Shown one piece after another: positions 18,531 through 18,753 of a DNA stretch of 64,000 bases; position 1 is the stretch's first letter, and each line of letters opens with the position of its first letter. Position numbers and translations under genes: made by a program. The DNA lies in the IMG/VR virus record IMGVR_UViG_3300023174_000140, positions 1 through 64,000 of that record; one strand, given 5' to 3'. Source of the DNA: a virus. The notes beneath the pieces are model-generated. The model saw nothing but the letters and a program-made list of their open reading frames with translations. It ran no database searches and was not told the origin of the DNA.

Positions 18531-18753
18531 TGCAGGACAGATTGTGTCGAAGCGAACTGGCGTAGGCATACGACCACTCGCGGAGCCAAAGTAATCTGGA
18601 GGGGTCGCACCCTTGAGGTAGAAGGGCATCTACAAAGATGCGCCTAAACTACACCGCGTCTGTTGCGAAACAGAGGTTCACAATCGGTAATGGGCAGATC
18701 TGAGGATCTGAAAAGGTAAGCAATAAAAACTTATCGTGCCTAGTCCTTTTTTC
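18531..18753 (+). ncRNA. candidate structured ncRNA B (about 220 nt)
   Basis: TTGACA promoter 18496; AGGAC/GTCCT closing stem plus T-run; GATTGTG/CACAATC; hairpins GCATCT-ACAA-AGATGC, TCTGTT-GCGA-AACAGA, CAGATC-TGAG-GATCTG. Confidence 0.7.

Follow-up and report, generated by a model that had tools for sequence, protein, structure and literature searches.

Many orphan structured RNAs are now being recognized close to the tRNA genes of large phages, hardly any of these RNAs has a known function, and thousands of orphan structured RNA candidates have been predicted in IMG/VR (10,006 predictions; PMC10690425). GOLLD and ROOL are large 'ornate' RNAs of phages and prophages which are found 'often near tRNA islands' (Kretsch et al., Nature 2025, PMC12286853). 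The locus described here, RNA B, is a candidate structured ncRNA of 223 nt (positions 18531 to 18753, + strand) in the window, by which the whole stretch of 64,000 nt that was analysed is meant. Like GOLLD and ROOL, it is phage-encoded, free of ORFs, richly branched according to prediction and located in a tRNA island, and neither a function nor a protein partner is known for any of the three. On the other hand, GOLLD and ROOL have a length of 600-800 nt or more and are widespread across many phages, whereas RNA B has about 220 nt and was confined to one sub-lineage, and no match to the covariance models of GOLLD or ROOL was obtained for it even at E<=10.

In the tRNA cluster of phage T4, two small, structured and stable RNAs, species 1 and 2 (RNA C and D of T4), are encoded beside the tRNA genes; to our knowledge their role has not been established. 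Compared by description only, RNA B is likewise small, structured and near phage tRNA genes, but the T4 RNAs are processed from a tRNA precursor, while RNA B has its own predicted promoter and a terminator-like end. The pRNA of phage phi29, about 170-220 nt in length, is produced from an early promoter and possesses a terminal helix pairing its 5' and 3' ends and a three-way junction. RNA B shares with it the size and an early-type promoter, together with paired ends and a three-way junction which are predicted, yet it did not match the Rfam pRNA model. In addition, the phage encodes a conventional large terminase, distant kin of those of Bacillus and Clostridium siphoviruses, instead of a packaging ATPase of the phi29 type, and relatives with the same packaging genes lack RNA B. 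Phage 'morons', a concept of Hendrix and colleagues, are said to be accessory units with their own promoter and terminator which are inserted between genes. RNA B is similar to them in its own predicted promoter, its terminator-like end, its atypical base composition and its presence or absence between otherwise syntenic genomes. However, classical morons encode proteins while the cargo of RNA B would be an RNA, and, unlike in morons, the boundaries lie inside -35 boxes, suggesting exchange by recombination between promoters. In kind, RNA B is similar to the orphan structured RNAs of phage tRNA islands and to the candidates predicted in IMG/VR, and it is a member of no family tested.

The window is the first part of a 76.8-kb IMG/VR virus record with a completeness of about 50%. 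A close relative of this phage is a complete genome of 171.9 kb, and the uncultured phage carrying RNA B would have a genome of about 170 kb. Its genome is AT-rich (about 30% GC), with nearly all genes on the + strand. The related contigs came from JGI environmental metagenomes, which we take to be from freshwater lakes. The phage was without a close cultured relative, since its large terminase showed at most 27% identity to that of any cultured phage; the best matches were from Bacillus and Clostridium phages, and the comparison gave no host identification. A 675-aa protein of the late region (37349-39376) contained a PATR repeat and a C-terminal PEP-CTERM motif, giving a hint that the host may be a Gram-negative bacterium with an exosortase system.

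RNA B is located 407 nt downstream of a tRNA-Asp (18051-18124), inside an early island which harbored five tRNAs (at 18051, 23326, 23680, 24272 and 24354, found by ARAGORN and RF00005) and the genes of DUF6878, DUF6915, DUF932, ArdC-like and GP88-like proteins. Besides RNA B, two ORF-free structured stretches, RNA A and RNA C, were revealed in the island. RNA A (17859-18045, about 190 nt) is directly upstream of the tRNA-Asp, with a promoter TTGACG-17-TAATAT and a fold z of -2.7 to -3.6, and, unlike RNA B, it was kept in many relatives (at about 2630-2830 in L063, about 4760-4950 in L011, and in L064-L066). In RNA C (25308-25525, about 220 nt, z -3.85), a helix of 12-13 bp joins the 5' and 3' ends and is directly followed by a U-run. 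This design, in which the closing helix would serve as terminator, is common to RNA C and RNA B, while their sequences are unrelated.

A sigma-70-type promoter (18496-18524, + strand) was predicted upstream of RNA B, composed of the -35 box TTGACA (18496-18501), a spacer of 17 nt and the -10 box TATATT (18519-18524). It matched the consensus at 11 of 12 positions, the best value in a 2-kb scan, and it belongs to the early-promoter class TTGAC-N17-19-TAWAWT, which was enriched in the window with 14 occurrences against 2.0 expected, 13 of them on the + strand (span 5548-23478). The last codons of ORF41, a gene for a small hydrophobic protein (18382-18507, + strand), overlap the -35 box. In several genes of the window an ATG was present exactly 7 nt after the -10 box (5582, 16729, 19073 and 19340), which would imply leaderless mRNAs. 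Position 18531 has the same +7 distance from its -10 box, so the start given in the initial annotation is the predicted start of transcription.

At the 3' end, the terminator-like strand GTCCT (18743-18752 together with the T6 into which it runs, + strand) completes the closing helix P1, and TTTTTT at 18747-18752 follows directly and was taken as the end of RNA B. The next gene, ORF84 (18788-19042, + strand), accompanies only some copies of RNA B and has a predicted promoter of its own, TTTACT-16-TATATT (18754-18781, + strand, 9 of 12 matches), and the -35 box of this promoter is the right-hand boundary of the module. No terminator was called at the 3' end of RNA B by a simple terminator scan, because the 'hairpin' there encloses an entire branched domain. 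Measured against a moron-like unit, RNA B thus has a predicted promoter of its own by consensus match, and in place of a simple terminator hairpin it has the P1 and P8 helices followed by T6. The GC content was 0.49 over 18531-18753 and 0.465 in the 200-nt window 18500-18699, with flanks of 0.25-0.33, and no ORF of at least 30 aa was found on the + strand in the interior. The initial annotation had described a TTGACA-N17-TATATT promoter and about 220 GC-rich nt without ORF, closed by AGGAC/GTCCT plus a U-run; all of these were recovered, with 49% GC in contrast to about 30% in the genome and with the closing helix present in the minimum free energy (MFE) fold.

The MFE of RNA B was -73.4 kcal/mol with a z of -2.84, and only one of 200 shuffles folded as well. 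In a local scan with 223-nt windows the z of RNA B was -3.07, compared with -1.8 to +1.4 for the flanking coding windows, whose folds were no better than those of their shuffles. The value is weaker than that of the nearby coding region 21031-21800, where z fell to -5.3. The body of the DUF932 gene (ORF 20931-21788, GC 0.50) folded far better than its shuffles; of the eight 223-nt windows of 21031-21800, six had z from -3.7 to -5.3 and two about -2.2. Repeats or palindromes embedded in the gene could be the source of this signal, as could an RNA element within it. The minus strand of the RNA B region folded equally well (z -3.16), so folding energy alone cannot pick the strand.

All stems listed in the initial annotation occur in the MFE fold, namely AGGAC/GTCCT, GATTGTG/CACAATC, GCGA..CGTA-GGCA-TACG..TCGC, GGGGT/ACCCT and GCATCT-ACAA-AGATGC, and likewise TCTGTT-GCGA-AACAGA, GGGC/GCCT, CAGATC-TGAG-GATCTG and GGTAAG/CTTATC. 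In the predicted fold, P1 clamps the two ends of RNA B together, its 5' strand AGGAC (18534-18538, + strand) pairing with GTCCT at 18743-18747, and it was invariant in all five copies. The 5' domain (18540-18685, + strand) is a multi-way junction closed by P2, in which GATTGTG (18540-18546) pairs with CACAATC (18679-18685), and which encloses the hairpins P3, P4 (weak), P5, P6 and P7. P3 (18552-18581, + strand) combines a variable stem, where all three double compensatory pairs occurred, with an invariant apical TAGGCATA. The most conserved core block (18583-18625, + strand) had two changes in 43 nt between alleles and includes P4, a weak CCA/TGG helix with an 8-nt loop that is absent from the single-sequence MFE fold of the window, and P5, which is GGGGT-CGC-ACCCT. 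P6 is a long hairpin (18615-18655, + strand) with an AA/TAAA internal loop, and its apical loop is ACAA in the window, GCAA in L089 and GAAA in the second allele. P7 (18656-18677, + strand) has the loop GCGA in the window and a loop of 5-7 nt in the second allele, and its stem changes between alleles pass through G-U. The GNRA loop pointed out before is present in the window allele, where GCGA is the sole one, but it was not conserved in the other allele. The 3' domain (18691-18742, + strand) is a three-way junction composed of P8 (TGGGC/GCCTA), P9 (18696-18709) and P10 (18715-18735), with one substitution among all copies.

RNA B was compared with Rfam 15, whose models included GOLLD, ROOL, raiA, OLE, pRNA, 6S, Y RNA and tmRNA as well as RNase P, SRP, group I/II introns and riboswitches. 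At gathering thresholds only the five tRNAs were detected in the whole window, and at E<=10 the region 18400-18850 gave only chance-level hits to snR57, GibS and mir-7386 (15-18 bits against thresholds of 44-115); thus no family, raiA included, matched RNA B. For the contigs L089 (type 1) and L090 (recombinant), only a tRNA was found at E<=5. Neither ARAGORN nor RF00005 revealed a tRNA or tRNA-like element at 18531-18753, and BLASTN in 'distant' mode against 50,697 cultured-phage records returned no match to RNA B.

Homologues were sought among 61 IMG/VR loci retrieved through the DUF6915 gene, which is 1 kb upstream of RNA B, and only one of them, L002, contained RNA B (85% identity). A covariance model, R1, was built from these two sequences, window and L002, and is consequently blind to distant homologues. 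R1 detected no RNA B in the other 60 loci with default filters, none in 11 relatives with filters off, and none in seven whole records of relatives, one of which is 100% complete. In the phage's own genome RNA B was a single copy; R1 found nothing else in the window or the genome, so RNA B is unrelated to candidates A and C, as had been proposed. Exact-seed scans of IMG/VR with five patterns, two of them gapped, gave one sister contig and otherwise chance coding matches, which were judged by eye and with the covariance model. A metagenome scan yielded three true copies (L089, L090 and L091; 259-269 bits) and three chance coding matches, bringing the total to five distinct copies including the window, all in very close relatives. 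Two exact-seed scans of 185,579 prokaryote genomes gave 0 matches, so RNA B is not detectably host-derived, with the limit that exact seeds miss diverged copies.

The five copies comprise allele 1 (window and L089), allele 2 (L002 and L091) and a natural recombinant, L090, which has the 5' part of allele 1 through P5 and P6, P7 and the 3' part of allele 2. The two alleles are about 85% identical and differ at 40 columns, and each of them folded alone gave the same helices; the chimera still folds into the same architecture. In the five-sequence alignment all 325 of 325 pair cells were standard in a consensus of 65 pairs, which was derived from the same sequences as were used for the pair counts. 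Pairing is kept at all 13 changed stem positions; three pairs, all in P3, were changed on both sides and seven on one side to or from G-U. When the partners were slid by 1-3 columns, pairing fell to 35-48%. Variation was 2.8 times as frequent in unpaired columns (27 of 98) as in stem columns (13 of 130). It clustered in the stems of P3 and P7 and in the loops of the hairpins, while the 43-nt core at 18583-18625, the 3' three-way-junction domain and the apical TAGGCATA of P3 were almost invariant. As to covariation among homologues, which had been suggested as a check, all pairs are kept in the five copies, but these represent effectively two alleles and one divergence event, and eight of the 13 helices never vary, so that P1, P2 and P8-P10 are neither supported nor contradicted by covariation. 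The structural evidence appears consistent but shallow. If the opposite strand is read instead, A-C mismatches would occur in 10 of the 65 pairs, and this G-U pattern together with the promoter and the U-run fixes the + strand for RNA B.

The surroundings of RNA B differed among the copies, with three different neighbour combinations. The order was ORF41, RNA B and ORF84 in the window and in L091, with ORF84 also downstream in L089; it was ORF41, RNA B and ORF94 in L002, and ORF41, ORF251 and RNA B in L090. RNA B was accordingly preceded by ORF41 in the window, L002 and L091, and homologues of ORF41 existed in relatives both with and without RNA B (the latter in L011 and L063). In L011 the order was tRNA-Asp, ORF41, promoter and ORF84 with RNA B absent, and L063 was similar. 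In L064-L066 the RNA A terminator is directly followed by CTTTACTT...TATATT and ORF84, again with RNA B absent, and this ORF84 promoter is identical to the one located behind RNA B in the window. The element was thus absent at the same site in L011, L063 and L064-L066, and it was missing from syntenic relatives including the complete genome of about 172 kb. The promoter spacer and the -10 box travel with RNA B into the different upstream context of L090. The AT-rich 251-codon ORF between ORF41 and RNA B in that contig (L090:246-1001, minus strand) resembles by eye a family-8 glycosyltransferase and is another accessory module at the hot spot.

The sequence common to all contexts extended from the -35 box TTGACA to CTTTACT, the -35 box of the next gene, so that two successive promoter boxes delimit the unit, whose exchange most likely took place through recombination at these repeated -35 boxes. 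Its own boxes, its varied neighbours and its absence in syntenic relatives point to an autonomous accessory ("moron"-like) RNA gene rather than a leader. That RNA B is a real, independently expressed structured ncRNA gene is considered probable, and the stand-alone multi-hairpin ncRNA described in the initial annotation gained support from the promoter, the shared fold, the pairing-preserving changes and the modularity. Most likely, it is an autonomous accessory gene for a stable, compact ncRNA in the early, host-takeover region of the phage, and the locus appears to be a true candidate, with clear limits, for the gene of a new family of structured ncRNAs whose distribution is very narrow.

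Four other explanations were weighed against such an ncRNA gene. RNA B could be a selfish or decaying GC-rich insert that lacks a function of its own, for example what is left of a foreign RNA gene or mobile element, and its fold would then be incidental or a remnant. The narrow and patchy distribution, with five copies in all public data searched, would suit an insert; close relatives do without RNA B, and boundaries in repeated -35 boxes would allow passive shuffling. We regard this as quite unlikely, however, as no base pair is lost between alleles that differ at 40 columns, hardly any change affects the 43-nt core and the 3' domain whereas divergence in the peripheral hairpins is compensated, a near-consensus promoter was kept in every context, and no match to models of rRNA, tRNA, intron or mobile-element RNAs was obtained. 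The position directly upstream of ORF84, with the terminator-like end 35 nt before the ATG, would fit a cis-acting leader (riboswitch or attenuator) whose closing helix and U-run control read-through into the next gene, and the -35 box TTTACT of that gene is weaker than TTGACA/TTGACT in relatives without RNA B. A leader is nevertheless very unlikely. It would have a constant downstream gene reliant on its promoter, whereas RNA B precedes ORF84 in the window, L089 and L091 but ORF94 in L002, ORF84 keeps the same promoter CTTTACTT...TATATT in L064-L066 where RNA B is absent, homologues of both ORF84 and ORF94 occur in other relatives without such a leader, and no riboswitch family matched. A leader or riboswitch role is disfavoured because the downstream gene varies and keeps its own promoter.

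The similar folding z on both strands would be expected if the hairpins acted in DNA, as a signal for replication, packaging or recombination or as a single-strand initiation site. Such a DNA-level element is still less probable than a leader, for the placement between a strong promoter and a U-run suits an RNA, 10 of the 65 pairs depend on G-U, which pairs on the + strand only, and relatives with complete or nearly complete genomes, in which an essential DNA signal would have to be retained, do not have the element. The possibility of a very small protein, encoded either by a + strand frame of 20-21 codons from the ATG at 18638 or by an antisense frame (41 aa, 18504-18629), is considered extremely improbable. 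The + strand frame is open in both alleles, where +1 and -1 indels cancel and lead to the same TGA, and the antisense strand of L090 is without a stop codon across the whole element. But the frame differs between the two indels, making nine consecutive residues unrelated between the alleles, no Shine-Dalgarno sequence was present, and the ATG, 107 nt away from the predicted start, is located within a stem. In four of five copies the antisense frames are interrupted by stops or shifted, and the open one of L090 lacks an ATG. Indels of 1, 4, 1, 1 and 3 nt separate the alleles, and no reading frame was conserved among the copies on either strand. These frame-breaking indels exclude a conserved protein, and the coding readings of RNA B were rejected.

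For RNA B as an ncRNA gene, the following course may be proposed. The host sigma-70 polymerase would start at about 18531 from the near-consensus early promoter, and the transcript would fold into two domains, the P2-closed multi-way junction with P3-P7 and the three-way junction of P8-P10. The 5-bp helix P1 (AGGAC/GUCCU) would join the 5' and 3' ends. Because the 3' strand of P8 is directly followed by that of P1 and then by U6, completion of the fold would probably stop transcription, leaving RNA B with both ends buried. RNA B might then act in trans by binding or titrating a host or phage protein during takeover or counter-defence, most plausibly as a decoy or scaffold rather than by pairing with mRNA; a trans-acting, protein-binding role is favoured by the early island, which is rich in anti-restriction-type genes and tRNAs. 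Transcription, the exact ends, the stability and the trans-acting protein-binding role are what we infer, and the specific role of decoy or scaffold is put forward tentatively, as a doubtful possibility.

Other modes of action were also considered. No antisense target of at least 13 nt was found in the 64-kb window, the longest complement of RNA B there being 12 nt and AT-rich, and the counts of 11- and 12-mers were at chance level; an antisense regulator of phage genes is disfavoured, complementarity in the window being not above chance. A CsrA-type sponge was rejected, since the second allele no longer has the GGA motifs of the junctions. No gene for an RNA-binding partner such as Ro or RtcB was observed among 30 early and middle proteins.

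It is conceivable, though unlikely, that a new class of small 'ornate' phage RNAs begins with RNA B, which would then be a self-sufficient, tertiary-folded RNA of about 220 nt that needs no dedicated protein for its action. The invariant apical TAGGCATA on a variable stem and the GNRA-type loops are possible candidates for tertiary elements, and so is the CCUAAA/AAGG internal loop, which may resemble a tetraloop receptor. If such a class were real, RNA B would serve in host takeover or counter-defence as an RNA-only decoy, assembly or catalyst and would pass between phages as a module with promoter boxes at its limits, and RNAs A, B and C would belong to a larger set of RNA morons of tRNA islands. 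If RNA B is merely one more orphan RNA of narrow range, its general significance is modest.

RNA B is small and cleanly delimited; its start is predicted, its stop would be built in, it exists as two natural alleles and one recombinant, and natural 'knock-out' relatives differ from the carriers only by the cassette. Its clean boundaries, alleles, recombinant and knock-out relatives make it convenient for probing, cryo-EM and pull-downs once the host is found. The boundaries inside -35 boxes also illustrate how promoter repeats may serve as crossover points for module swapping in phage early regions.

In other relatives (L008, L012, L016, L017 and L018), other non-coding GC-rich islands of 140-250 nt occupied the slot after DUF6915, at 1-2 kb downstream of that gene, and differing tRNAs (Asn, Thr and Asp) were observed there as well. 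Across the lineage this slot seems to be a hot spot at which RNA genes vary.
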